Assembly: GCF_000023965.1 (NCBI RefSeq)
Contig: NC_013202.1
Location: 780,001-812,000, forward strand
Source of the DNA: Halomicrobium mukohataei DSM 12286
GTDB taxonomy: Archaea; Halobacteriota; Halobacteria; Halobacteriales; Haloarculaceae
Direction of reading: 5' to 3'
Length of the DNA stretch: 32,000 bases
The notes beneath the pieces were generated by a model that had not been told where the DNA came from, did not search any database, and was given only the letters and a program-made list of their open reading frames with translations. Position numbers and translations under genes: made by a program. This document shows, one piece after another, positions 10,681 through 28,462 of this stretch; within the stretch, counting starts at the first letter, position 1, and each line of letters begins with the position of its first letter.

Positions 10681-11174
10681 AGGCCACTCAGCACGCCCGC
10701 CGCGCCGGCCACCAGCGGCACCAACACGAGCAGATACGCCGCCGCCGAGACGGCCCAGTCACGGGTGATCGTCCGCACCCGCTGGCGGGCCAAGCCCGGG
10801 CGCGGGAGGACGACGACGGCGAAGAACCCGACCATTAGGACGAGCAGGACGACCGCGGTCAGCAGGTACGTCACCACGCCGTCGCCGAGGACGTTCCCGA
10901 CGAGCAACAGTAGCGTCACGTACAGCGGCCCGGTGAGCCAGCCCGCGGCGTGGTGGACGACGGCGGCGAGGCGCTTCGGTGCGCTGTCGGGGTTCTGCTC
11001 GGTCAGGACGCCCGACGCGACGAACGGCGGCGTCTCACCCTCTGGCAGGCGAGCCATCACCACGTCCATCCCGCGGGTCGCGAGCATCCCGGCGACGATG
11101 CCGAAGGTAATCAGTAGCGCCACTCCCGGTGAGACCGACGAGAGAATCGTCATACCAGTGGATGGGGTCGCCAC
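10677..11174 (-). CDS. Membrane protein of unknown function
   Basis: 165-aa hydrophobic ORF with 4-5 TM segments. Its stop overlaps the metY stop by 4 nt (convergent). Exact start uncertain. Confidence 0.6.
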   Translation of the reverse strand: MATPSTGMTILSSVSPGVALLITFGIVAGMLATRGMDVVMARLPEGETPPFVASGVLTEQNPDSAPKRLAAVVHHAAGWLTGPLYVTLLLLVGNVLGDGVVTYLLTAVVLLVLMVGFFAVVVLPRPGLARQRVRTITRDWAVSAAAYLLVLVPLVAGAAGVLSGL

Positions 11175-11198: not shown

Positions 11199-11831
11199 CT
11201 ACAGCACGCTCTCGCCTTCGAGCAGCTCGGACAGCTCGGCCATCGTCTCGACGATGGTGTCACACGAGGGGGCGACCGCGGGCTTCGGGTCGAAGCCGAC
11301 GGCCAGTCCCGCCACTTCCAGCATCGGGAGGTCGTTTGCTCCGTCGCCGACGGCGATCGTGTCGTCGCGGTCCTCGCCGACGACCGTCGTCACGATGTCT
11401 AAGGCGTCGTCCTTGGTGCCCTCGATGAGCGGCCCCTCGACCGCGCCGGTGAGCTTCCCGTCGGCGACGGGCAGGCGGTTGGCGACGATCGCGTCGACCT
11501 CTACCCCCTCGGCTTCGAGTGCAGCCTCGACGCCGCGTTCGAAGCCGCCGGTGAGGATACAGACGTAGACGCCCGCTTCGCGCAGGGCCTCGATCACGTC
11601 GGCCGCGCCGGGGCGAAGCTCGACCCGATCGAACGCCGCCTGTGCCGTCTCGTCGTCCATTCCCTCCAGCAGCGCACACCGCTGATAGAGGCTCTCCGCG
11701 TACTCGATCTCGTCGTTCATCGCCCGCTCGGTGATCTCGGCCATGTCCTCGGCCGTGTCGTTCTGATTGCCCAGCAGGACGGTCATCTCCGAATCTGAGA
11801 GGGTCCCGTCGAAGTCGAAGGCGACTAGCAT
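11199..11831 (-). CDS. serB: Phosphoserine phosphatase (HAD superfamily)
   Basis: HAD motif I FDFDGTL and motif IV GDGANDL. Start placed at ATG 11831, because the track's 11861 start is a TTG extension. Confidence 0.8.
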   Translation of the reverse strand: MLVAFDFDGTLSDSEMTVLLGNQNDTAEDMAEITERAMNDEIEYAESLYQRCALLEGMDDETAQAAFDRVELRPGAADVIEALREAGVYVCILTGGFERGVEAALEAEGVEVDAIVANRLPVADGKLTGAVEGPLIEGTKDDALDIVTTVVGEDRDDTIAVGDGANDLPMLEVAGLAVGFDPKPAVAPSCDTIVETMAELSELLEGESVL

Positions 11832-11915
11832 TGTCAGGCGGTTTCTCGCGGAGGGTTTCAAAGGGTCCGGTTTCGAGTGGAGTGGTCGCGGATCGACGGG
11901 TTCGGTCGCGACGGG

Positions 11916-11948
11916 CTACGGCGTCGGCGGTGGCCCGTCGTAGCCGTC
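11916..11948. repeat. 33-bp direct repeat, copy 1 (att-like; copy of the XPD 3' end)
   Basis: ctacggcgtcggcggtggcccgtcgtagccgtc matches 13918..13950 at 32 of 33 positions. Confidence 0.9.
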
Positions 11949-12217
11949 TATATCGATCGTATCCCTTTGCTCAGGAACGGACGATTACTGGCCAGTTGGG
12001 ATAAATATATTTTCAGTACACAAATCTGATCCGTATAAACGCTTCAAGCTAGTCCCCTTCAAGAGATACAGAGTACCGTTATAATCTCATCTTTCGTCTA
12101 TCGAGTTGTACCTAATATATTTATAAAATAATATAGAATTAAATTATTTATTATAGTATAAAAATATAGTATAAATCAATAAATAAAACTAAGTGGCTTG
12201 CCAACTTCCGAGGAGAT

Positions 12218-12391
12218 ATGTCGCTGTCAAGAGATATCTTGCTATTCAGCATCGTCTTGATGATCTGGTCAATTCAAGCTGAAATGACACCAGGTGGTTC
12301 CACAATCATTGTGGTTGCATCAATGGTATTTGCCTTGGCTGGACTTGCAGGTAGCATCTATCGTTCAGCGGATGAGATACTACTAGATTGA
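12218..12391 (+). CDS. Small two-TM membrane protein (57 aa)
   Basis: Below the ORF track size cutoff. Hand translation: MSLSRDILLFSIVLMIWSIQAEMTPGGSTIIVVASMVFALAGLAGSIYRSADEILLD. Preceded by ggagat. Confidence 0.4.
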   Translation: MSLSRDILLFSIVLMIWSIQAEMTPGGSTIIVVASMVFALAGLAGSIYRSADEILLD

Positions 12392-12611
12392 GGAAATCGG
12401 GAACTCAGAGTACGTTAATCAGAGAAATTATGCAATTTGTGGGCTCAAAAACAGTGGTTTTCCACCTCAGACTGCACAACAGCCTATCACGACTGGCTAA
12501 ATAAAAATATAACAAACATATATGGTGACCAAAACTATACAGTGAAACCACTGTCTATGCAAGATCAGACTTGACCCGTGAAATAAAAACAAATGTCAAA
12601 TATATATTGGC

Positions 12612-13562
12612 CTATCTTTTCACTCCGTCAATCCTAAGCGTTTCAACAGTAGCGTCAAAGTTCATCTTTGATCCTGTAGTCCACAACCCGCAACTCAGGC
12701 TGCCGCCAAATGCTACACCGATCCGATATTCGTTTCCCTCTCTAAACCCTTCCCAAGTCGCTGATTCTGTACTCCTTGCTGTGCCACTATCGTAATTCCT
12801 GCCAGTTTCACTTGCCGTAGTGATGTCGAAGTTGCTCTCACTACTGAAATTTCTCGTAATTGTTGTCTCCTTTGATAAATTCTGAACAAAATACCCCACC
12901 GAAATCCCAGTGTGGTTCTCATAGCCATCGACTTTATCAGACATCCCGAGCAAGAAATTTGCAGTTCCTAGTGCTATCGGGATATAGGCTGGTGGCACTG
13001 ACTCGGGCGTAACTTTTGATGTGACCTGCTTTTTCACATCTTTCAAACGCTTCTTATTAGCACGACTTTTTCTCCCTGTTTTGTTTGATCGCTCGCTAGT
13101 CTGTGGGTCAACGTATTCAGTGTAGCCTGGATTAAGCTCATATTCGAGTTCTACGTCGATGAAGATGTCTAATTTGTCTGACTTGGCCTCAAACGGAGTC
13201 CCCATCACGACACCGAAAGTGTCCTTGGGACCAGCGGCTGTCCGTTGGGTCTGTCCACTGACATTACCAGTTGGACCAGATTCAACATCCAGATTATCAA
13301 AACCCTGATTTGTCACCCGGTCGGCCTCAAAACTGTCGGATTCTGTCTTTTTCAGCGTATCTCCAGGCTCAATTGTCGGAGGGTTCTTCTGTGAATTTGG
13401 AGGGAGACCAGATAGGATCACTCCATCACTAGTCAGCGTATTGGCCTCATCGTCATCCTCTGCTGTATCTCCCTGAACGCTGCCCGCTACTCCAATTGTC
13501 CCGACCGTGCTAGTTGCTACAAGTTGGGCAAACTTCCGCCTGCCAATTTTTCGTGACATCAT
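12612..13562 (-). CDS. Tat-signal secreted protein of unknown function
   Basis: Start placed at MMSRKIGRRKFAQLVATSTVGTIGVAG (twin-arginine signal). The mature part is S/T/N/G-rich and looks beta-rich. Low-GC codon usage. Confidence 0.7.
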   Translation of the reverse strand: MMSRKIGRRKFAQLVATSTVGTIGVAGSVQGDTAEDDDEANTLTSDGVILSGLPPNSQKNPPTIEPGDTLKKTESDSFEADRVTNQGFDNLDVESGPTGNVSGQTQRTAAGPKDTFGVVMGTPFEAKSDKLDIFIDVELEYELNPGYTEYVDPQTSERSNKTGRKSRANKKRLKDVKKQVTSKVTPESVPPAYIPIALGTANFLLGMSDKVDGYENHTGISVGYFVQNLSKETTITRNFSSESNFDITTASETGRNYDSGTARSTESATWEGFREGNEYRIGVAFGGSLSCGLWTTGSKMNFDATVETLRIDGVKR

Positions 13563-13917
13563 AGACGCATTAACCAAGCATACATTTCTTCTTTTTGTCT
13601 GGAGCAATTTAGACATTACTGAGAACTAACTTTAATGAGAAAGAATAAGAGTACCATGTCGGCAGTGCTAGAAATGAATGACTTCATTGTCTATATTTGG
13701 ATATGTGCGTGGCTTTTCGGATATTCATATCTATGAGTTGAAATCCAACCGTATACAGACAATAAAATAATATCACTTTGTCTATCTCATATCGTTAAAA
13801 AACCACAACATAATATAAAACACATAAATTTATAGGTGGGTACTGTTGTGATATACATAATATTGGTGGCGATTGAATAATGTCACAAGCCAGAACAGCA
13901 CTTTGCATCCGTCGATC

Positions 13918-13950
13918 CTACGGCGTCGGCGGCGGCCCGTCGTAGCCGTC
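13918..13950. repeat. 33-bp direct repeat, copy 2 (functional 3' end of the XPD gene)
   Basis: ctacggcgtcggcggcggcccgtcgtagccgtc encodes DGYDGPPPTP-stop on the minus strand. Confidence 0.9.
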
Positions 13951-16164
13951 CACGTCCTGGTAGAAGTTCAGCATCGCGAACTTGAGCTTCTCTGGGTCGA
14001 TGTCGATCATCTCCGCGCGCTCCTCCGGCGGGAAGGTTCCCCGCACCGCGTAGTCGTGCATCTCCATCTCGGCGGCCTCGGTGTAGCGCCGATCCAGCAG
14101 GATGCGGACGCCGAAGTCCTCGGGCGAGCGGACCACGCGGCCAAGCGCTTGCCGGGTCTTGCGGATCGTCGGGATCTCGACGGCGTAGTGCCAGCCCGCC
14201 TCCTCGTCGTCGCCGAAACTCATCGCGTAGGCGTTCTGGACGGCGTCCATCCGGTCGTCGAGGTGGGGGTAGGGGACGCCGACCACGACGACGGTCCGGG
14301 CGTCGTCGCCGTCGTAGCTCACGCCCTCGCCGAGCGTGCCCCACAGCGACGTACACAGGAGCGCGTCGTCCCGGTCGACGAACGAGTCTCTGAGGTCGCG
14401 GGCCTGCGTTCCGGGCTCGTCGAGGTACTGCTTCCCGTCTACGTCGACTCGCTCGTGGTATCGTTCGGCCTCGGCGTAGCTCGGGAAGAAGGCGAGCGTG
14501 TTCCCGGGCGTCATCTGGGCGGCGTCTTCCAGCACGCCAGCGACGGCGTCCTGGGTCGACGGATCGTCGCGTTCGCTGGAAAACAGCGCGGGGCCGTCGA
14601 CGGCGTAGGTCCGTCTGCGTTCTTCGGGGAACTGCTCGCCGTAGGCCATCGCCTCGGCGTCGGTCAGTCCGAGCACGTCCTGGGTCACGTCGAAGGGTCG
14701 CAGCGTCGCGCTCATCAGCACCGACGCGTGCAGATCCGAGAAGAGGTCCCCGGTCACGTTCGAGGGGATGCAGGTGTACAGCTCCGCCCGACCGTAGATG
14801 TCGCCACTCTCTTCCCGGCGTCGGACACTCACCACGGGGTACTGTCCGAGGTCGTCGCTCTCTTCGAGCCACGCCGAGAGGAACTGGGCCGCCTGCAGGG
14901 TCTGACACTCCTTGCGCGTATCGAGGTCGCCCTCCTTGAACGCCTCCTCGTACTGCTGGTCCAGCTCTCGGCCCAGTTCCAGCGCCTGGTCGAGTTCCTC
15001 GTGGAAGCCGGGGCCGCTGTACTCCTGGAGGAAAGCGAGTGTCAGTTCGTCTCGGCGGTCGTCGTTGGCGATCGAGAGGTCGTACCAGTGGTCCTCGACC
15101 TGCTCGCGCTCGCCGAAGCCGAACGCCTCGTCGTAGGTCGTCCGCAGTGCCCGAAGGAAGGTCGCGAGCACGTTGTGAGCGGCCTCGCTTCTCGCGCCTT
15201 CGCCGCCCGAACCGGCCGCCGTCTCCTCGCTCTCGGCCAGTTCGTCGATGGCGCTCTCGACGGTCGTCTCGGTGAGGGTCCGACGAGCGTGGTCGCGGGC
15301 GGCGTTCTCGACGTTGTGGGCCTCGTCGAAGACGGCGACCACGTCCTCCGGGTCCCGGCCGAGCCACCGAAAGAACTGTTCGCGGATCATCGGATCGAGC
15401 AGGTGGTGGTAGTTACAGACGACCAGATCGACGCCCTCGACGCCCTCCTTGAGCAGTTCGTAGCCACAGAGCCCGCGGTCGTGGGCGTACTCGTACACGT
15501 CGTCGGGCGTGCGAACGTCCTCGTACAGCCAGGCGTAGAACTCGGTCGTGTCCACGGTGAGGTTCCGGTAGTAGTGATCGCAGATCGTCGCGTCCGTCTG
15601 TAGCTCTTCGAGGTCTTCTTCGACCGCCTGGAGTTCGTCCATGACGGCGTTGCGGGCCTCTAGCGCGTTCTCCTGGTTCTCGCCGTCGCTGGGGCCTTCG
15701 GTGGCCTGGTCGAGCAGCTCGCTCTCCTGGCGTTCCAGCTCGGCCCGTTCGCGTTCTTTGTCCACCAGGTCACGGGTGGTATCGCGGAGCGCCTGACACT
15801 CCTCGTAGTCGACGTCGATGTGACACATCGACCCCTTGCCACGGAAGACGACCGCACGGATCGACTCCTGAGCGGTGATCGCTCGGGCGTCCTCGACGAA
15901 CTGACGCATCTGCTGGTGGACGTTGGTCGTGATGACGACGGTCTTGTCTGCCTGCCGGGCGTACTCCAGTGCCGGCACGAGCGAGGCCAGCGTCTTGCCG
16001 GTCCCGCAGGCCCCCTCGAAGAGCACGTCACGACCGTCGGTCAGCGCGTCGTAGATGCCGCCCATCGCCTCGCGCTGGTGGTCGTAGGGCTCCTCGTAGG
16101 GGAAGAAACGCAGATAGTCGTCGTCGGTCGTCGCCACGTCACTCTCTTGGCCGCTATCGGGCAA
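13918..16164 (-). CDS. rad3: XPD/Rad3-family (DinG-like) Fe-S DNA helicase
   Basis: Walker A GACGTGKTL and a DEAH box (FDEAHN). Four Cys residues (MCH, ECQ, ICD, LCG) lie between them as in the XPD 4Fe-4S domain. 748 aa. Confidence 0.9.
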   Translation of the reverse strand: MPDSGQESDVATTDDDYLRFFPYEEPYDHQREAMGGIYDALTDGRDVLFEGACGTGKTLASLVPALEYARQADKTVVITTNVHQQMRQFVEDARAITAQESIRAVVFRGKGSMCHIDVDYEECQALRDTTRDLVDKERERAELERQESELLDQATEGPSDGENQENALEARNAVMDELQAVEEDLEELQTDATICDHYYRNLTVDTTEFYAWLYEDVRTPDDVYEYAHDRGLCGYELLKEGVEGVDLVVCNYHHLLDPMIREQFFRWLGRDPEDVVAVFDEAHNVENAARDHARRTLTETTVESAIDELAESEETAAGSGGEGARSEAAHNVLATFLRALRTTYDEAFGFGEREQVEDHWYDLSIANDDRRDELTLAFLQEYSGPGFHEELDQALELGRELDQQYEEAFKEGDLDTRKECQTLQAAQFLSAWLEESDDLGQYPVVSVRRREESGDIYGRAELYTCIPSNVTGDLFSDLHASVLMSATLRPFDVTQDVLGLTDAEAMAYGEQFPEERRRTYAVDGPALFSSERDDPSTQDAVAGVLEDAAQMTPGNTLAFFPSYAEAERYHERVDVDGKQYLDEPGTQARDLRDSFVDRDDALLCTSLWGTLGEGVSYDGDDARTVVVVGVPYPHLDDRMDAVQNAYAMSFGDDEEAGWHYAVEIPTIRKTRQALGRVVRSPEDFGVRILLDRRYTEAAEMEMHDYAVRGTFPPEERAEMIDIDPEKLKFAMLNFYQDVDGYDGPPPTP

Positions 16165-19367: not shown

Positions 19368-19405
19368 ACGAAACTGGTTAGTTCACGCACTCGGTGGCTG
19401 TCGAT

Positions 19406-20503
19406 ATGGACCCACGTGTCCGCGAACACGCAGAGATCGTCGCAGACCACTCCGTCGAGCTGCAGGCCGGTGACGACGTCGTCATCGACGCCCATCCCGA
19501 CGCGGCGGACCTCGTGACGGCGCTCCACGAGGTGATCGCCGACCGCGGCGCGAACCCACTCACCGTCCAGGACCGCCTCGGTGCTCGCTTCCGACGCGCG
19601 TATCTGCGCAACCACGACGGCGACTTCGAGACGCCGGCACACGTCCAGGCGCTGTACGACGAGATGGACGTGTACATCGCCATCCGCGGCGGCGGCAACG
19701 CCACCGAGACCAGCGACGTCGACCCCGAGACGACCGCGGCCTACCAGCAGGCCCAGCAACCGCTGCTCGACGAACGCCTCTCGAAGCGGTGGTGTCTCAC
19801 CCAGTACCCCGCCCAGACCAACGCCCAGCTGGCCCAGCTCAGCACGGAGGGCTACGAGAACTTCGTCTGGGACGCGGTCAACAAGGACTGGGACGCCGTC
19901 CGCGAACACCAGTCCCAGATGGTCGACATCCTCGACCCCGCCGACGAGGTCCGGATCGTCTCGGGCGACACCACCGACGTGACGATGAGCGTCGCCGGCA
20001 ACCCGACGCTCAACGACTACGGCGAGCGCAACCTCCCCGGCGGCGAGGTCTTTACCGCCCCCGTCGCCGACAGCGTCGAGGGCGAGGTCCTGTTCGACAA
20101 GCCCCTGTACCATCAGGGCCGAGAAGTGACGGACGCATACCTCACGTTCGAGGACGGCGAGGTCGTCGACCACAGCGCGTCGAAAAACGAGGACGTGCTG
20201 ACGGAAGTGCTCGACACCGACGCGGGCGCGCGCCGACTCGGCGAACTCGGGATCGGGATGAACCGCGACATCGACCAGTTCACCTACAACATGCTGTTCG
20301 ACGAGAAGATGGGCGACACCGTCCACATGGCCGTCGGCCGCGCGTACGACGACACCGTCGGCGAAGACAACGAGCAAAACGACAGCGCCGTCCACGTCGA
20401 CATGATCGTGGACATGAGCGAGGACTCGTACATCGAGGTGGACGGCGAGCGCGTACAGGAGGACGGGACGTTCGTGTTCGAGGACAACGAAATCGAGCAG
20501 TAG
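19406..20503 (+). CDS. Aminopeptidase, M29 (AmpS/PepS) family
   Basis: NLPGGEVFTAP and HMAVGRAY motifs, about 365 aa. Start placed at the ATG (MDPRVREH). Confidence 0.85.
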   Translation: MDPRVREHAEIVADHSVELQAGDDVVIDAHPDAADLVTALHEVIADRGANPLTVQDRLGARFRRAYLRNHDGDFETPAHVQALYDEMDVYIAIRGGGNATETSDVDPETTAAYQQAQQPLLDERLSKRWCLTQYPAQTNAQLAQLSTEGYENFVWDAVNKDWDAVREHQSQMVDILDPADEVRIVSGDTTDVTMSVAGNPTLNDYGERNLPGGEVFTAPVADSVEGEVLFDKPLYHQGREVTDAYLTFEDGEVVDHSASKNEDVLTEVLDTDAGARRLGELGIGMNRDIDQFTYNMLFDEKMGDTVHMAVGRAYDDTVGEDNEQNDSAVHVDMIVDMSEDSYIEVDGERVQEDGTFVFEDNEIEQ

Positions 20504-20624: not shown

Positions 20625-20700
20625 TCGGAGGGTGTGTTCTGGTTCGAACATTGTTTCTGGAATACGAACACTCATATTGTTTTGACGAACTGGAAATAGC

Positions 20701-21723
20701 GTGTACCAGTTTACCCCTGACGAAATCGACAGCAGTCGAGCCAATCACCAGGCCGTTATTCAGGATGCAGAGAACATCGATGCGAAGCGGATTGGGAACC
20801 TCGGGGAGATCGCGTTCGAGCAGTTCTGCCGAGAGTATCTGCCAGCAGAGATGTGGGAGTGGCAGAACGAGGATGCGATCAGACGATGTAACCCGGAGAG
20901 TTTCGCGGGACACGACTTCGAGGTGTTCGGCTACGAAGTCGACGTGAAGACCTCTCGCGACGTGTCAGCGTTTCTCCCGGAGAATCTGGTCGAGATGGAT
21001 TCAGCCGACGACATCATCGTGATGGTCTGGCACCGGGACAACGAAGACAGCCTGATTCTGCTCGGCTGGGAGCACGTCGCCACGCTCGAGTCGAAAGTCG
21101 AGACCGAGGAACAGTTCTCGGGGGACACTCCGGCGAAGCTCGACCACCTCGCCGCTCGGCCGATGAACGACCTCCAGGACCTCGGACCGAACACGGCGAA
21201 CATGAACCAGAAACCGGAGAACCCGTTTCAGCCGGGTGATCGCGTCGAGAAGCGAGACGACGAAGATGCCTCGGTGGGGGTCGTCGTCGAGGTTCTGCCA
21301 CCGGAGACGCAGATCGAACTATTCGGGCAGGAAATGGACGGCGAAGCCGTCCGGGTAGCGTTCCCCAGCTCGCTCGACGAGGGACCAGGCGACTGGCGAG
21401 ACATCGAGCCAGCACTGTTGTCCTCGTACTGCGACGATCAGGACGTTAGCCTCTACACGTACAAGCACGAGAACCTGAAGTTCGCGGAGAATCCGTACAC
21501 AGTCGGTGATTACGTTGTCAAGTCCTCACACGACGACCCGAACCTCGCCGTGGTCGTCGGGATCGACGGCGACGAGGTGAGTGTCGTCTACGAAGGTCCG
21601 ACCGGAGAGGAAGTTGCACCGGCGAACCTCTCTGATCACTGTGACGACGAAGACCTGAAACGGTATCAATACTCACCTGACGAACTGGAGTTCACCACGC
21701 TCGAGGAGCACGGCGAGGATTAG
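20701..21723 (+). CDS. PD-(D/E)xK nuclease-fold-like protein with two C-terminal SH3/Tudor-like repeats
   Basis: The N-terminal domain has GNLGEIAFE ... HDFEVFGYEVDVKTS (an E ... D ... D/ExK arrangement). The C-terminal half is an internal duplication (ENPFQPGDRVEKRDDEDASVGVVVEV... versus ENPYTVGDYVVKSSHDDPNLAVVVGI...). GTG start. GC is lower than in core genes. Confidence 0.6.
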   Translation: MYQFTPDEIDSSRANHQAVIQDAENIDAKRIGNLGEIAFEQFCREYLPAEMWEWQNEDAIRRCNPESFAGHDFEVFGYEVDVKTSRDVSAFLPENLVEMDSADDIIVMVWHRDNEDSLILLGWEHVATLESKVETEEQFSGDTPAKLDHLAARPMNDLQDLGPNTANMNQKPENPFQPGDRVEKRDDEDASVGVVVEVLPPETQIELFGQEMDGEAVRVAFPSSLDEGPGDWRDIEPALLSSYCDDQDVSLYTYKHENLKFAENPYTVGDYVVKSSHDDPNLAVVVGIDGDEVSVVYEGPTGEEVAPANLSDHCDDEDLKRYQYSPDELEFTTLEEHGED

Positions 21724-21884
21724 ACCTCGATTGTCCGATAATTCTCTTCGACCTGTTCCACTGGTTCTTCGATTTTCCGACCACACGCCACGCACTGGAG
21801 TCCGATCCGACTGCCGGGGAGCGTAACCGCCTCGATCGTCGCATCACACCCAGCGGGGCAACATAGCCATTCGTTCAGGGACAT
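21720..21884 (-). CDS. Zinc-ribbon microprotein (54 aa)
   Basis: Below the track cutoff. Hand translation: MSLNEWLCCPAGCDATIEAVTLPGSRIGLQCVACGRKIEEPVEQVEENYRTIEV, with CCPAGC and CVAC pairs. Its stop codon overlaps the stop of 20701..21723 (convergent). Confidence 0.5.
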   Translation of the reverse strand: MSLNEWLCCPAGCDATIEAVTLPGSRIGLQCVACGRKIEEPVEQVEENYRTIEV

Positions 21885-21951: not shown

Positions 21952-22140
21952 ATTCACCAAACAGCGGCTGCGAAATATGTTTAGAATAATATTTACCCAA
22001 AATATTTTTTAATCTATATATAGGTTAATTATCTTTCAATTTTTAAATTTTCATAACAGAATCTGTAATCGGGTATAGTGGTTTTTATTACCGGGTGCTT
22101 CAGCGAAAGGCTGAAATTCTTAGAAAGACTTCCTTTATAT

Positions 22141-22458
22141 ATGAATGAAGCTATCCAAGAATATATATTTGTTTTTGCTATCATGATATTAATGTATGTA
22201 CTCGTAAGGTACCAGTATCTAACGCCACGAATGATTGGATTTGACACAATTATCAGGAACACTCCTGATGAGAAAGCAGCATATATCATTTCAAATGTAT
22301 ACCTTCGGATTGGTGTCTTGTGCTTATTGGGTATCTTGATTGAGACCTTATTTCAACCACCAAGCTACTCACGAAATATTTTAATAGGAATTGCAATTCT
22401 TGACCAGCTAATAGTGATACTGAAGTTGTATTTTGAACACACATATAATGTGGGGTGA
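22141..22458 (+). CDS. Membrane protein (105 aa) in extremely AT-rich DNA
   Basis: MNEAIQEYIFVFAIMILMYVLV... has three hydrophobic segments. An overlapping minus-strand ORF (22029..22289) is an alternative, so the strand call is uncertain in AT-rich sequence. Confidence 0.4.
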   Translation: MNEAIQEYIFVFAIMILMYVLVRYQYLTPRMIGFDTIIRNTPDEKAAYIISNVYLRIGVLCLLGILIETLFQPPSYSRNILIGIAILDQLIVILKLYFEHTYNVG

Positions 22459-22648
22459 CTGTAATTTATAGTGGGAACAATCCATTTTGAAAAGTATAAT
22501 AGCTATCTGGTGTTTCGCACCCCGAAAAGGGTCATAGGACATGCAGTAGGGGGTTAGTGAGTTGAAGAACCGATTATCTCCAACCTTAGTTACAATCATA
22601 TACTGTCACCGCATATTAATATAAATAAGTTTTATATACTATACTCAC

Positions 22649-23131
22649 TTATTCTTCTTTTATGATATTATGGCTCTCAAATTCTGACTTTAGTCCATCA
22701 ATATCAATTTGTTCACGGAACTTCTGATTCCCCAGCCTTATGGGGCGTGTAACTGACTCACCATCTTTTTGATAGACAATTAGTATTATTCGTCCCTGGA
22801 ATGAATCCAACCCTTTGATCTCTTTTATATCTGCTATTTTTATTTTATCTGCTTTATTCATATATCCAAAATAACTAATTGCTTTATTAAAAATATAAGA
22901 TAAAAATATACTAAATACTAGGATGCTGACCACAACCATCCCGATAGTTGATGGGTCAACACCCAATATTAATCCGAATATCGACAAGCAAACAGCAAAT
23001 ATTATCAAAATTTTCACCTTTATATCGGTCAGGACTACTTCGTATAAAGTTCTCCATATTGATTCACTAATATAAATATACTCGCTATCGAACTTAATAG
23101 ATCCTCCCAAAATCCTATGTTCTTCAGCCAT
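22649..23131 (-). CDS. Two-TM membrane protein with a K/I-rich C-terminal soluble domain (possibly bPH/YdbT-like)
   Basis: 160-aa ORF. A TM hairpin (ILIIFAVCLSIFGLILG, MVVVSILVFSIFLSYIF) is followed by a ~70-aa domain. The lysine- and isoleucine-rich composition is unlike typical haloarchaeal proteins. Confidence 0.55.
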   Translation of the reverse strand: MAEEHRILGGSIKFDSEYIYISESIWRTLYEVVLTDIKVKILIIFAVCLSIFGLILGVDPSTIGMVVVSILVFSIFLSYIFNKAISYFGYMNKADKIKIADIKEIKGLDSFQGRIILIVYQKDGESVTRPIRLGNQKFREQIDIDGLKSEFESHNIIKEE

Positions 23132-23197
23132 GATATTTATTTAATAGTTGCTATTTAACTCCTCAACGAATAAGGCTGACGATCCAAGATAGGGGAT

Positions 23198-23698
23198 TTA
23201 AGCGAAGGCGGCTCCCCCTGTAGCCGTGGCAAGAATTCCAATGCCAGCCAGATACACTGATATGGCTGCAAGAGCTGCGATTACTACAACGGCGACAACA
23301 GCTGCCAGAACTGCAACTACGATATCACCCAAGGTAATATCATACCTATCTGCTAGCTCTCGCGCGAATTCCCACGCAAGGTCCTCAGCATCCTTTCTGG
23401 TGATACTATTTTCTCCCACACAAGTTTCAACACAGATTGGTGGCGAGGTGTCCTCAGATCCGATATATGCGCATATGTCTCCAGACTCATCAACCCCCAT
23501 CCCAACGTAGAAACCAACGTCGAACTTAACAAACCCTGAATCCAGAGAGAGATCTCCGGACACCGAGTAGATCTGGGGAGTTCGCCCATAGGCACATTCC
23601 TTACGGCCAAGACTCACCGTATCCTGCATGGTTGAGCAGAACTCTCCACCTCCCACGACATCGGGAATAGCCTCACAATAGTCAATATTGACGCCCAT
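23198..23698 (-). CDS. Cys-containing protein with a long A/V/I/G-rich C-terminal hydrophobic tail
   Basis: 166 aa with six Cys in the first ~95 residues and the C-terminal tail IVVAVLAAVVAVVVIAALAAISVYLAGIGILATATGGAAFA. No signal peptide. Its ATG overlaps the stop of the upstream gene (TAATG). Confidence 0.6.
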   Translation of the reverse strand: MGVNIDYCEAIPDVVGGGEFCSTMQDTVSLGRKECAYGRTPQIYSVSGDLSLDSGFVKFDVGFYVGMGVDESGDICAYIGSEDTSPPICVETCVGENSITRKDAEDLAWEFARELADRYDITLGDIVVAVLAAVVAVVVIAALAAISVYLAGIGILATATGGAAFA

Positions 23699-24180
23699 TA
23701 TTCTTCACCCTCCATCTGAACATCACTCGGAACTGGTCTGCTCTCAATCACAGTTGGTTCAAATGCCTTGTTTGATTGCGGAATTTTCAGTTTATAGACA
23801 GCACCGTCTCTCCAGAACTTCAGCCGGTTTCCTTTCATCCACTCAAGGTTTAGTGCCCCCGTCCGACTTTCCGAGGTAACCTGATAGATCTCATCTGGGG
23901 TTTGCTCTGCTTTTGTTACACCAGTCGCAATGAACAGTTCAACTGTCCCAGTGAAAACGGACGTTGAAAATGCCATACGATCATGATTCGGCTGCTTTGA
24001 TCGTGTGGTAGAACCCAGCAATTCAATCGCGAGGTCCTTCACGGATTCATCGCTGTACTTGCTGTCTTCTATTGAGGGGTATTTTTCTTTTGCACTTACG
24101 ACTAGCGGTGAGGAAGCAATGACTGCAGTACTTCCAACTCCTGCCAGTACATCTCTCCTACTGAGGTTGTTATTTCCCAC
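23698..24180 (-). CDS. Tat-signal secreted protein of unknown function
   Basis: MGNNNLSRRDVLAGVGSTAVIASSPLVVSA has a twin-arginine motif plus a hydrophobic region. 160 aa. Confidence 0.65.
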   Translation of the reverse strand: MGNNNLSRRDVLAGVGSTAVIASSPLVVSAKEKYPSIEDSKYSDESVKDLAIELLGSTTRSKQPNHDRMAFSTSVFTGTVELFIATGVTKAEQTPDEIYQVTSESRTGALNLEWMKGNRLKFWRDGAVYKLKIPQSNKAFEPTVIESRPVPSDVQMEGEE

Positions 24181-24264
24181 ATAGAGCGCTTAGTTCTAAT
24201 CTCAGTTAAAGATTATTTAGGCACTCTAACTATGTTACAATTGCTACTATTGTCTTTCGGGGAC

Positions 24265-25233
24265 CTAATTTTGGAGTTTAGAGAGTATATCCGACCAGGA
24301 GAGATCTTGTGAGAACAGATCCGATTCGAGGTTCCACGACCATGGTGCGGCGTCGTTGGGATCTGGTTCGTGGCCAGTCGGCTCGAGATCCTCAATCGAC
24401 CCACCGAAGAGTTGGTCGGTCGGATGGTCACCGTCAGCAGGCCAGCGATCGTAGAACTCGACGACTTTCTTGTCGGTCTTGTAGTACGCCAGCGTCGCCA
24501 TGCGCTTCAGCTCCGGGTGAGCGTCTTTCCCGGTGTGAATCACGTTGCCGCAGGCGTCGACGCCGATCTTGGCGAATCGCTTGGCGAGTGGTGTCCACTG
24601 GGTCGCGACCTCTCGACGATAGGTTCGAGCGTCGAAGTGCGTCGACGACTCGTCGATGAAGACGAACTTCGGAACGTCGCGGTGTTCCAGAAGGGTGACG
24701 GCGAGGTCGTGCGCGGAGGTCACGACTTCGTCGGTCAGGGGCCAGCTCCGGACGTTCGAGATGATCATGTACTCGTCGAGCTGGGTTTTTCGTAATTCAG
24801 CGACTAGGGACATGGTATTGGTCTTGCCTGTGTTGGGATTGCCCGCGCCGAGGATGAACGCCGGTGCCTCGTTGTTCTCGATCTCGTCAAGGAGCATCAT
24901 TGGGAGCCGAAGCGTAGAGCTATCGAGATCCTGCTCGGTGACGCCGACCAAGTGCGACATGACCGAGCCGTTTCCGTTGGTGACGGCTTTGGTCGTCCGA
25001 TCGGCGAGGTACTTCTCCAGCAGCGTCTCGCCGAGTTTCGACTCTTCGAACGATGTCGTGTCGAGATCGCCACGAGCGACAGCGTCTTCGACGAAGGACA
25101 GCGCTGCTCGATCCTGCGCGTCGTCGACGATTCCGGTGTGGGGATAGTATTGCTCATGTGTTTCGAGACCGCCACGAATCTGCTCGCGGAGCTTCGCCGC
25201 AGTGAGCAGGTGCTCGTCGACGCCATCAGTCAC
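24265..25233 (-). CDS. P-loop NTPase of unknown family
   Basis: Walker A GAGNPNTGKT and Walker B-like KFVFIDESS, with a ~140-aa N-terminal extension. Start placed at GTG 25233 (GTGACTGA overlap with the upstream stop). The track's TTG start at 25275 is possible. Confidence 0.75.
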   Translation of the reverse strand: MTDGVDEHLLTAAKLREQIRGGLETHEQYYPHTGIVDDAQDRAALSFVEDAVARGDLDTTSFEESKLGETLLEKYLADRTTKAVTNGNGSVMSHLVGVTEQDLDSSTLRLPMMLLDEIENNEAPAFILGAGNPNTGKTNTMSLVAELRKTQLDEYMIISNVRSWPLTDEVVTSAHDLAVTLLEHRDVPKFVFIDESSTHFDARTYRREVATQWTPLAKRFAKIGVDACGNVIHTGKDAHPELKRMATLAYYKTDKKVVEFYDRWPADGDHPTDQLFGGSIEDLEPTGHEPDPNDAAPWSWNLESDLFSQDLSWSDILSKLQN

Positions 25234-26053
25234 CGGCGGGCGCACCCCCGTTCCCAGCTCCGGCGAGATCAGCAAGGTCTTGGTCGAAGTCGATACGAAC
25301 GCCGGGGGTTTCGGACTCCTGCGAGTTCTCTTCAGTCTCGCGAATCTTCCGCTCGAGGCCGAACTGCTCGATCGCGTTGTCGATCTCGTCGGTCAACCCC
25401 CCTCCTTCGTCTGGAAGGGTCCCGCGTTCGAACGTCGAGACGATCCGAAGCACGGCCTTCCGGGTGGCGTTACGGATGATCGTGAACGCCTGGGCTTCGA
25501 TCGCGAAACCACGCTTGGCGTCTTCCTCGAGCTGGCCGCGACACTCCTCGACAGCTTGGAGTGTTTTCATCAGCTCGCGGTCGGACATCGTACCGCGCCA
25601 AGTGCCTTCGACAGTCTGTTCGTCGAGATTGACCTGCTTCCCGAAGGCGAGATCGGGACTCACTCGATCGAGTTGCCCTTCGGTGATCGTCCACTCGCTG
25701 AATCGCTGGCCGGGGATGCGGAAGATGCCGCCCTTCGTGTAGCGAGCGTCGACGTCGACGAGCCAGACGTACGTCGGTTCCCACAGCAGTGACCGGACCT
25801 TCTTGCCGGTCGGTCGACCGACGATCGGGATGATGATGATAGCTGTGAGGCCGATGATCTGGAGGTTGCGCGGGGGTTCGAAGCCGATGACCGACGCCAG
25901 AACGAACGGCCCGAGGCCGAGACCCGACGCCAGGAGCGTCAGGTTCTCGGTCAGCCAGCGGAACGCGCGGAACCAGCGAGATCGACTCGGGTCCTGCTCT
26001 GGTTCGTTAGTCTGTTCCGTCCGGGCTCGGGATCGCTCATGCGACGCGCTCAC
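25226..26053 (-). CDS. Two-TM membrane protein with an acidic, helix-rich C-terminal domain
   Basis: 275 aa. Basic N-terminus, TM segments LTLLASGLGLGPFVLASVIGF and LQIIGLTAIIIIPIVG, then a ~180-aa soluble region. GTG start. Overlaps both neighbouring genes. Confidence 0.7.
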   Translation of the reverse strand: MSASHERSRARTEQTNEPEQDPSRSRWFRAFRWLTENLTLLASGLGLGPFVLASVIGFEPPRNLQIIGLTAIIIIPIVGRPTGKKVRSLLWEPTYVWLVDVDARYTKGGIFRIPGQRFSEWTITEGQLDRVSPDLAFGKQVNLDEQTVEGTWRGTMSDRELMKTLQAVEECRGQLEEDAKRGFAIEAQAFTIIRNATRKAVLRIVSTFERGTLPDEGGGLTDEIDNAIEQFGLERKIRETEENSQESETPGVRIDFDQDLADLAGAGNGGAPAGD

Positions 26054-26150
26054 CTCGTTCGGTCGTGCCGACCTTGGCCGCTGCTTCGTACAGGACTGCG
26101 ACGACGAGCAGCGCCACGAGTACTCGGAGAGCGTTCTTGTGTCCGATCAT
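26037..26150 (-). CDS. Single-TM microprotein (37 aa), first gene of the NTPase cassette
   Basis: Internal ATG of track ORF 26037..26261: MIGHKNALRVLVALLVVAVLYEAAAKVGTTERGERVA. Its stop lies 17 nt inside the next ORF. Confidence 0.4.
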   Translation of the reverse strand: MIGHKNALRVLVALLVVAVLYEAAAKVGTTERGERVA

Positions 26151-26265
26151 GAGTTTACTGGACTGGGACTCCCCAGGAGACGACCGTCGCGATAAACGCC
26201 AGCTGCATTCCGAGCGGCGTGTCGGCAGCCACGCGTCAGACGATCGTTCGGTCCGGCCCACGTCC

Positions 26266-28317: not shown

Positions 28318-28345
28318 TCACCCGCCCGCCGACGTTTCGATGCGT

Positions 28346-28427
28346 GCCAGGATGGCCGAACGGTAAGGCGCACGCCTGGAAAGCGTGTTCCCTTTCGGGA
28401 TTCTGGGTTCAAATCCCAGTCCTGGCG
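28346..28427 (+). tRNA. tRNA-Ser (anticodon GGA)
   Basis: Hand-folded cloverleaf. Acceptor gccagga/tcctggc, D arm gcc-gaacggtaa-ggc, anticodon arm cacgc-ctGGAaa-gcgtg, long variable arm tccc-tttc-ggga, T arm ctggg-ttcaaat-cccag, discriminator g. No encoded CCA. Confidence 0.85.
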
Positions 28428-28462
28428 TGATTCTGCCGCGAGCAAACTCGCGAGCGGCGACT
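28402..28462 (+). repeat. Direct repeat copy 1: tRNA-Ser T-arm and acceptor plus 35 nt downstream
   Basis: tctgggttcaaatcccagtcctggcgtgattctgccgcgagcaaactcgcgagcggCgact matches 28548..28608 at 60 of 61 positions. Confidence 0.9.

Follow-up and report, generated by a model that had tools for sequence, protein, structure and literature searches.

The gene at positions 20,701–21,723 (+ strand) of a 32,000-nucleotide (nt) stretch of Halomicrobium mukohataei DSM 12286 (NC_013202.1, positions 780,001–812,000; the whole stretch is called the window below) encodes a 340-residue protein in which a predicted PD-(D/E)xK nuclease domain is followed by two consecutive Tudor-like β-barrels, and it lies within the remnant of a pleolipovirus provirus. 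The open reading frame (ORF) starts with GTG and is real and intact; the starts of its homologues coincide with residue 1. A preliminary description, made from the sequence alone, had taken this architecture to be one without a described family. This has to be corrected: the protein is a member of a family already catalogued, with no function given, as Pfam DUF7961_N plus DUF7961_C (DUF, domain of unknown function) and as PHROG 18072, the latter profile of 335 positions matching residues 1–334 with E = 2e-212. Neither entry mentions a nuclease, tandem barrels or a context of pleolipoviruses and defence genes, which are additions of the present analysis. As to function, we tentatively favour a role of the DUF7961 protein in superinfection exclusion or defence.

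The N-terminal domain is predicted to adopt a PD-(D/E)xK nuclease fold

The first full-length AlphaFold2 (AF2) run, made with a shallow alignment, modelled the barrels confidently and the N-terminal domain poorly (predicted local distance difference test, pLDDT, 50–70), and a Foldseek search with this whole-protein model returned barrel matches only. Re-modelling the domain as residues 1–170, with distant relatives added to the alignment, gave a pLDDT of 88 and a predicted template modelling score (pTM) of 0.86. The elements of this model (helices 26–46, 88–98 and 126–139; strands 52–54, 73–75, 78–85, 105–112 and 117–125) include, in the canonical PD-(D/E)xK order, α1 with E36, β1, β2 with D72, β3 with D81-x-K83, α2 and β4. 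The predicted domain has the α-β-β-β-α-β core of the superfamily, as the preliminary description had anticipated, together with its catalytic signature of a glutamate on α1, an aspartate at β2 and (D/E)xK on β3.

The PD-(D/E)xK-like constellation noticed at the outset was found as G35-E36-I-A-F-E, H71-D72-F and E79-V-D81-V-K83-T. The codon of E36, a candidate metal ligand in the GNLGE motif of helix α1, lies at 20,806–20,808 (+); that of D72, the ‘D’ of PD at the start of β2, at 20,914–20,916 (+); and the codons of D81-V-K83, which form the (D/E)xK motif of β3, at 20,941–20,949 (+). All four residues were invariant in 84 of 84 intact copies, which came from 85 loci. When relatives of 23–43% identity were aligned as well, six columns stayed invariant (G32, E36, D72, F73, K83 and G122) and D81 was nearly so.

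Searches with the re-modelled domain found distant likeness in structure. Nearly all of the top 50 Foldseek matches in the PDB were the influenza PA-N endonuclease, and these matches were weak (E 3e-3, template modelling score, TM, 0.41). In the BFVD database of viral models, the matches were small phage proteins with E down to 8e-7 and TM of 0.5–0.6, some of them named restriction endonuclease, Holliday junction resolvase or RecB-family exonuclease. At the level of sequence, the protein had no match even at E = 10 in NCBIfam, among PDB sequences or in a copy of Pfam that lacked PF25902 and PF25903, and a profile of the N-terminal domain had none in the PDB; hhalign comparison of this profile with a PDDEXK_17 protein and an Mrr_cat protein gave probabilities below 1%, with low power, both being single sequences. 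Across the Pfam, NCBIfam and PDB sequence searches and the profile search of the PDB, no characterised housekeeping enzyme was matched; a clear match of that kind would have spoken against the original proposal. Based on the AF2 model, the Foldseek matches and the conservation, the assignment of residues 1–162 (DUF7961_N; 20,701–21,186, +) to the PD-(D/E)xK fold, as a predicted nuclease, is well supported.

The C-terminal half is a tandem duplication of a Tudor-like barrel

The C-terminal half consists of unit 1 (residues 173–262; 21,217–21,486, +) and its duplicate copy, unit 2 (residues 263–331; 21,487–21,693, +). The two units matched each other with E = 3e-12 and 33% identity in BLASTP, and with a probability of 99.5% (E = 2e-23) in a profile–profile comparison by hhalign. 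By these sequence comparisons the half is a true tandem duplication, far beyond chance, as had been proposed.

The AF2 model of this half (pLDDT 80–92) contains a small five-stranded β-barrel twice in tandem, with strands at 181–184, 193–198, 216–220, 252–255 and 259–261 in unit 1, besides a segment at 202–214, and at 271–274, 283–289, 292–296, 322–324 and 329–331 in unit 2. Almost all Foldseek matches in the PDB were tandem Tudor, Agenet or KOW modules (E 5e-4 to 4e-2, probability 0.9–1.0), which agrees with the barrels of SH3/Tudor/KOW type suggested earlier. None of the Pfam models for Tudor, Agenet, KOW or SH3 matched the protein, and on its homologues they gave only insignificant hits to KOW6_SPT5 (E 0.87) and DUF3553 (E 0.16).

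Unit 1 is distinguished by a 14-residue hairpin insertion and is present in every family member, with invariant PPE, GE and GPxxWR loops. Its aromatic residues F221, W232, Y243 and Y254 are invariant and F176 is nearly so; judged by this conservation, these five are candidates for an aromatic cage or ligand pocket. The linker that joins unit 1 to the nuclease-like domain (residues 163–172, PNTANMNQKP; 21,187–21,216, +) is near-invariant in sequence and was modelled with low confidence.

A strand motif, Y-x-[FY]-x-x-[DE]-E-[IL], had been said to occur three times, at the end of each unit and at the start of the protein. The three segments do exist (YQFTPDEID, YTYKHENLKF and YQYSPDELEF), but the literal pattern fails in unit 1, whose closing motif has an asparagine at position 7 here and in 82 of 84 copies. 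With a position-specific scoring matrix built from the two unit ends, the N-terminal segment ranked third among all windows of the protein, and only 0.7% of shuffled N-terminal domains reached its score. We considered whether the N-terminal YxFxPDE strand could be the relic of a third barrel and rejected this, although the resemblance is nominally non-random: the strand is kept, as MYWYPFSE..., in barrel-less relatives that consist of this single domain, and it is therefore part of the nuclease-like domain and not a third repeat.

One further protein touches on the barrels. P0222, of 277 residues, has an N-terminus resembling a twin-arginine translocation (Tat) signal, followed by two tandem units (...GWPDWR...FYAFPRDRL) that resemble the DUF7961 barrel with E 3e-6. 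Barrels of this kind are therefore not confined to proteins with a nuclease domain and occur here in what is apparently a secreted protein.

The gene lies in the remnant of a pleolipovirus provirus

The closest relative of the DUF7961 protein is 90% identical and is encoded on two metagenomic contigs (L090 and L091 in our numbering of loci) by a complete pleolipovirus provirus. There the gene order is integrase, a 71-residue ORF, DUF7961, a 54-residue zinc-ribbon ORF, a 174-residue ORF, VP8-like, ORF7-like, DUF8063, spike, VP3 and Rep, and the neighbour of the integrated provirus is an M29 peptidase gene, as it is in the window. Similarity of the window to this provirus begins at 20,651, which is 50 nt 5' of the start codon.

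Several of these genes were found again downstream of the DUF7961 gene. The 54-residue zinc-ribbon (CxxC-type) ORF with the motif CCPAGC...CVAC (21,720–21,884, –) is convergent with the DUF7961 gene, overlaps its stop codon by 4 nt and belongs to the same remnant; the same ORF follows the DUF7961 gene in L090/L091, L012, L013 and L016. A VP8-like putative NTPase gene (24,265–25,275, –) matched phrog_1979 with E 4e-102, and its product is 49% identical to HfxHg1_060 of the virus Halfgib1. An ORF7-like gene of DUF8125/DUF8126 type, by the Pfam names of its homologues (25,226–26,053, –), matched phrog_5952 with E 1e-107 and is 72% identical to a gene of a Haloarcula marismortui provirus. The last recognisable piece is a 119-nt fragment (26,099–26,217) made up of the 3' end of VP3 and the intergenic region between VP3 and the spike gene, 82–89% identical by blastn to six other loci (L009, L003, L008, L035, L071 and L074). 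Read from these alignments, the remnant ends on the right with this fragment, which also points to a deletion within the element.

Between the zinc-ribbon ORF and the VP8-like gene lies a low-GC (33–45%) insert of 2.2 kb (22,000–24,200) at the place where the closest complete provirus (L090) has the 174-residue gene. Its three minus-strand orphan ORFs (22,649–23,131, 23,198–23,698 and 23,698–24,180) had no match in Pfam or PADLOC, no significant match in PHROG and no similarity in the roughly 90 loci fetched, and the stretch looks like a secondary insertion of foreign DNA. The integrase and the 71-residue ORF of the closest relative are gone from the remnant; no integrase, spike or Rep gene was found in the window, where attachment (att) repeats were not searched for. 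Since the provirus is complete in L090/L091, the copy in the window has decayed: both the integrase side and the side from spike to Rep are lost and the 2.2-kb insert is gained, with the DUF7961 gene left intact. On these comparisons, the region from about 20.65 to 26.2 kb is well supported as a decayed, non-mobile pleolipovirus provirus, and the DUF7961 gene as an accessory, ‘moron’-type gene of a temperate pleolipovirus that stayed intact amid the decay.

The window as a whole has about 65% GC and encodes acidic proteins, which is its haloarchaeal character; the DUF7961 gene has about 58–60% GC vs 64–68% in its flanks, as the preliminary description had remarked, and is adjoined by the 33–45% GC stretch at 22.0–24.2 kb. 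The gene had been placed at the edge of an island. It does stand beside the low-GC stretch, but it is itself a part of the island, namely of the decayed provirus. Upstream of it, the AT-rich sequence CATATTGTTTT (20,673–20,683, +), about 18–28 nt before the GTG, is by its sequence a possible TATA box of a leaderless haloarchaeal transcript.

We also observed that M29 aminopeptidase genes recur near DUF7961. In the window the gene is at 19,394–20,503; others are at 10,779–11,879 in L001, in L021, in L030, and at 983–2,077 and 5,274–6,362 in L090. The distance to DUF7961 was 0.2–5.6 kb in several unrelated genera (Halorhabdus, Halorubrum and the lineage of the window), which may reflect a recurrent integration site nearby.

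The family is widespread in Halobacteria and under purifying selection

Homologues formed 297 clusters, 64–90% identical to the protein, from many genera of Halobacteria, and all were annotated as ‘hypothetical’. PF25902 (DUF7961_N) and PF25903 (DUF7961_C) were both present in 120 of the 120 homologues listed, which covered the same range of identity. The named members of the 90%-identity cluster that holds the protein were all Halomicrobium. In a search of 1.84 billion representative proteins, the full-length family made up one 50%-identity cluster; the distant relatives from this search were proteins of 165–230 residues with the N-terminal domain alone, and some others with one barrel. Among the species-representative genomes scanned, 99 carried the gene, plasmids included.

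Copies elsewhere were intact in 84 of 85 cases, orphan copies included. About 70 had two barrels and 13 had one, the latter lacking unit 2 and ending 2–4 residues past unit 1. The one-barrel forms interleave with the two-barrel forms by identity, and the C-terminally extended distant relatives are single-barrel. From this pattern, the barrels most likely arose by a single duplication, after which unit 2 was lost several times.

The ratio of nonsynonymous to synonymous substitution rates (dN/dS) was 0.02–0.13 for the nuclease domain, 0.00–0.14 for the linker and 0.02–0.16 for unit 1. Unit 2 has evolved 2–4 times faster in amino-acid sequence, yet it is constrained. Judged by these ratios, purifying selection on the family is strong.

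Gene neighbourhoods contain viral and defence genes without a conserved partner

Pleolipovirus proviruses were recognisable at 19 of 84 non-redundant loci, and either their markers or an integrase gene at 28 of 84. The full core set of VP3, spike VP4, ORF7-like and VP8-like genes was present in L090/L091, L003, L008, L009, L092 and others. In the proviruses, DUF7961 has a fixed position between the integrase/winged helix-turn-helix (wHTH) module and the VP8-like gene. Of 50,697 phage and virus records, a single one (Halfgib1) carried the gene, and the IMG/VR viral contigs scanned held no relative.

No conserved partner gene emerged when all neighbouring ORFs of 87 loci were clustered, when markers were sought by tblastn or when the Pfam domains of neighbours were counted; in this last census, the 150 neighbours from 42 marker-less loci were heterogeneous. 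Nor was there a cognate methylase in the remnant in the window, and Dcm adjoins the gene only in Halfgib1 and in its integrated copy (L080). Some associations with defence genes do recur. Eight loci of Halorubrum have a type IV enzyme of Mrr type 81 nt downstream of DUF7961 and, further on, a Dam methylase. In eight to nine loci (L004, L026, L029, L030, L036, L044, L053 and L056, and L042 in part), DUF7961 is adjoined by an AAA_5 (McrB-type) ATPase of about 750 residues and a partner of about 450 residues, which has no family match. These loci belong to at least five genera, the arrangement occurs in two orientations, and the gap is sometimes only 35–105 nt; this adjacency could reflect a co-mobile cassette or a functional link. 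Relatives that have DUF7961_N only adjoin Kiwa, Pycsar, restriction-modification and recombinase genes.

One-barrel copies are carried by the virus Halfgib1 and the provirus Halfvol3

Halfgib1 is an active Haloferax virus (PMC7911831), and it carries a one-barrel copy, HfxHg1_080 (locus L006). The provirus Halfvol3 of Haloferax volcanii DS2 carries another, which from gene order and the position of HVO_1425A we infer to be HVO_1425. Both share the nuclease domain, linker and barrel 1 with the protein of the window (72–73% identity over residues 1–262), and both occupy the corresponding place, between the VP8-like gene and the wHTH/integrase module. Unlike the window protein, they are 265 residues long and end right after barrel 1, with no second barrel.

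In Halfgib1, the DUF7961 gene has a type II restriction-modification pair on one side and a SIR2-TPR gene on the other, none of which is present in the window. HfxHg1_070 (L006 8,994–10,115, –), annotated as ‘hypothetical protein’, matched REase_II of PADLOC with E 3e-30 and is back to back with Dcm; the SIR2-TPR protein is Aga_SIR2/ThsA-like (E 1e-52). HfxHg1_080 was considered as the restriction partner of Dcm and dismissed, given the clear REase_II match of HfxHg1_070 and the lack of a methylase at most loci. This 16-kb pleolipovirus appears to hold a cluster of three to four defence genes. Directly after the DUF7961 stop codon (L006 12,400–12,477), 26 codons on the same strand as DUF7961 are 65% identical to residues 296–321 of the VP8-like protein of the window, and they may have been left behind by the recombination through which the virus acquired its defence cluster.

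In H. volcanii, a 56-residue CxxC ORF, HVO_1425A (translation in PMC10117724), lies between the DUF7961 copy and the VP8-like gene, on the opposite side compared with the 54-residue ORF of the window. The two ORFs look unrelated.

Deletion of Halfvol3 (HVO_1422–1434) led to an up to 10-fold higher virus:host genome ratio of HFPV-1, for which the responsible gene was not identified (PMC9436352).

Possible functions of the DUF7961 protein

We propose, as a tentative first choice that stops somewhat short of a belief, that the DUF7961 protein is a putative solitary, restriction-like nuclease for superinfection exclusion or defence. It probably cuts foreign DNA. In the mechanism that we envisage, Mg2+ would be held by E36, D72 and D81, K83 would activate a water molecule, and the N-terminal domain would cleave phosphodiester bonds. 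Target recognition would probably fall to barrel 1, which is always present and has invariant loops, the target being a foreign protein or some feature that marks nucleic acid as non-self; barrel 2, as its copy, would play an auxiliary part. Like solitary restriction enzymes of type IV style, the protein would act alone, with neither a methylase nor an immunity partner. Since the family has no conserved partner or cognate methylase, discrimination between self and non-self would therefore have to reside in the protein itself. The provirus would express the gene from its own promoter, and the replication of competing viruses or plasmids would be limited. The benefit of superinfection exclusion or defence would also explain why hosts keep the gene after loss of the provirus.

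The proposal draws on the predicted fold with its conserved catalytic residues, the barrels, the proviral origin, the defence genes in some neighbourhoods, and the purifying selection and retention of intact copies even as orphans; the Halfvol3 deletion (PMC9436352) and the detection of the putative HVO_1425 by mass spectrometry (PMC12091111, Table 5) provide a precedent. Several observations weigh against this proposal. The protein has no match in sequence to a curated nuclease family or PDB chain in the Pfam, NCBIfam, PDB and hhalign comparisons, and the PDB fold matches of its N-terminal domain are weak (TM ~0.4). It has no match in PADLOC-DB 2.0 at E = 0.1, and neither have the other ORFs of the remnant. 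Conservation is very high (at least 62% identity across genera), which is unusual for a gene engaged in an arms race. About half of the loci have no viral or defence neighbours and contain ordinary metabolic genes only, and the association with defence genes elsewhere may be mere shared residence in variable regions. To our knowledge, Tudor-like barrels are not established as readers of DNA modification, and the survival of the host beside a solitary nuclease is left without an explanation. For Halfvol3, the authors of the deletion study favoured the repressor HVO_1423 as the antiviral factor (PMC9436352).

A more specific form of the proposal, which we regard as a rather doubtful extension, is that DUF7961 is a new single-protein, restriction-like antiviral effector of pleolipoviruses, in which the Tudor-like barrel senses non-self and licenses cutting, and that the ‘superinfection-like exclusion’ of HFPV-1 by Halfvol3 would be due, in part or more, to the putative HVO_1425. 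We know of almost nothing that has been established on the exclusion of competitors by chronic, non-lytic archaeal viruses, and the pleolipoviruses are a little-studied group. DUF7961 offers a conserved and, by prediction, catalytically intact candidate, with a copy in the very provirus that restrains HFPV-1, in a tractable host and with the challenge virus at hand. Should the proposed function be borne out, the combination of a nuclease with a Tudor-like reader would join the list of stand-alone immune effectors, and the accessory regions of pleolipoviruses would be defence hotspots like those of prophages and satellites in bacteria. If the function is not confirmed, DUF7961 is still a well-delimited DUF with a clear fold assignment.

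A nuclease that serves the viral life cycle itself, by processing or resolving replication or recombination intermediates, by aiding integration or excision, or by travelling in the virion and degrading the DNA of the host or of a competitor once inside, is an unlikely alternative. An active pleolipovirus and many proviruses carry the gene at its fixed place between the integrase/wHTH module and the VP8-like gene, BFVD neighbours of the N-terminal domain bear the names of a Holliday junction resolvase and a RecB-family exonuclease, and mass spectrometry detected HVO_1425, the putative Halfvol3 copy, in the CsCl fraction with Halfvol3 virion proteins (PMC12091111, Table 5). The gene is, however, not a core gene, as its presence in one phage or virus record only and its absence from the IMG/VR contigs scanned show, and it is intact and strongly selected in decayed proviruses and at loci without viral genes, where a function of this kind would be useless.

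The solitary nature of the gene, its patchy distribution over 99 species genomes and its very different neighbourhoods, which include plasmids, are also what one would expect of a selfish, free-standing homing-type endonuclease that spreads by cutting cognate sites lacking the gene and travels with proviruses and islands that gain nothing from it. Nucleotide homology between the window and other loci sets in at 20,697–20,701, so that the homology begins at the start codon itself, which would suit such an element. We nevertheless consider it improbable, because genes of this kind usually decay after fixation and here intact copies prevail, with dN/dS of 0.02–0.13 along the whole length. The loci showed neither a target gene nor an insertion site that recurs, and the constant place relative to the viral modules fits cargo better than independent insertion.

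The matches of the barrels are protein-binding readers and the KOW domains of Spt5, the gene adjoins the wHTH regulators of proviruses, and both HFPV-1 infection and provirus deletion shift host transcription widely (PMC9436352, PMC12091111). A non-cutting regulator or adaptor would fit these points; its PD-(D/E)xK fold would bind, and its barrels would dock, for example, on chromatin proteins, the ribosome or RNA polymerase and so adjust the expression of host or provirus genes. It is nonetheless quite improbable, as inactive PD-(D/E)xK domains normally lose their catalytic residues, which here are invariant in the family and, save for a nearly invariant D81, in its distant relatives as well.

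A role as an ordinary haloarchaeal nuclease for chromosomal DNA repair or housekeeping, to which high conservation across many genera could point, is effectively excluded by the distribution and proviral location: synteny is not conserved, no more than 99 species-representative genomes carry the gene, it occurs within proviruses, a virus and plasmids, and all four H. volcanii proviruses, including the one with a DUF7961 copy, can be deleted (PMC12091111).

Other features of the window

A second low-GC island (40–45% GC) lies at 11,500–13,900. It includes an ORF of 334 residues (12,612–13,616, –), with no match in Pfam, PADLOC or PHROG, that is flanked by a haloacid dehalogenase (HAD) hydrolase gene and an XPD/Rad3-type helicase gene (13,918–16,164, –). 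ARAGORN reported a ‘tRNA-???’ with a four-base anticodon at 11,210–11,310, inside the HAD hydrolase ORF (11,199–11,861, –); this call is probably spurious. Just one tRNA of the window is convincing, the tRNA-Ser(GGA) at 28,345–28,428.

Comparison with known systems

Among solved structures, the influenza PA-N domain (PDB 6w7a, 4e5g) is nearest to the N-terminal domain, which it resembles in its PD-(D/E)xK fold, in the acidic residues and lysine at a divalent-metal site and in being a stand-alone domain of about 180 residues. In contrast to the DUF7961 protein, PA-N cuts capped RNA inside the viral polymerase and has no barrels; the identity is about 10%, and an evolutionary link is not implied. 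The phage proteins matched in BFVD (K4FB91 of Cronobacter phage GAP32 and A0A6J5NRJ2, a ‘restriction endonuclease’, among them) are likewise viral and, at 150–200 residues, of similar size to the N-terminal domain (E 8e-7 to 1e-3). They differ in being single-domain proteins of bacterial viruses, mostly uncharacterised, with 13–20% identity.

The two consecutive five-stranded SH3-like barrels of the C-terminal half have their counterparts in ZGPAT (4ii1), ADCP1 (6ie4), KOW2-3 of Spt5 (4ytl), 53BP1 and SETDB1. These tandem Tudor/Agenet/KOW modules are eukaryotic readers of chromatin or RNA polymerase, unlike the haloarchaeal protein, to which they are 9–14% identical.

A nuclease joined to a small β-barrel or Tudor module, as in the DUF7961 protein, is found in archaeal NucS/EndoMS and in eukaryotic Tudor-SN. 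The barrel of NucS is N-terminal and the enzyme is a conserved repair enzyme, whereas Tudor-SN uses staphylococcal-nuclease domains of the oligonucleotide/oligosaccharide-binding (OB) fold; neither was among the matches of any search with the protein. In the searches made here, a Tudor-like reader module did not appear to be tied to prokaryotic nucleases, while the catalytic fold itself is known.

Solitary type IV (modification-dependent) restriction enzymes such as Mrr, MspJI and PvuRts1I combine a PD-(D/E)xK nuclease with a reader domain in one polypeptide, have no cognate methylase and are found in mobile elements and defence islands. The DUF7961 protein shares this logic and departs from it in the reader, which is winged-helix or SRA/PUA-like in those enzymes and, by prediction, Tudor-like here.

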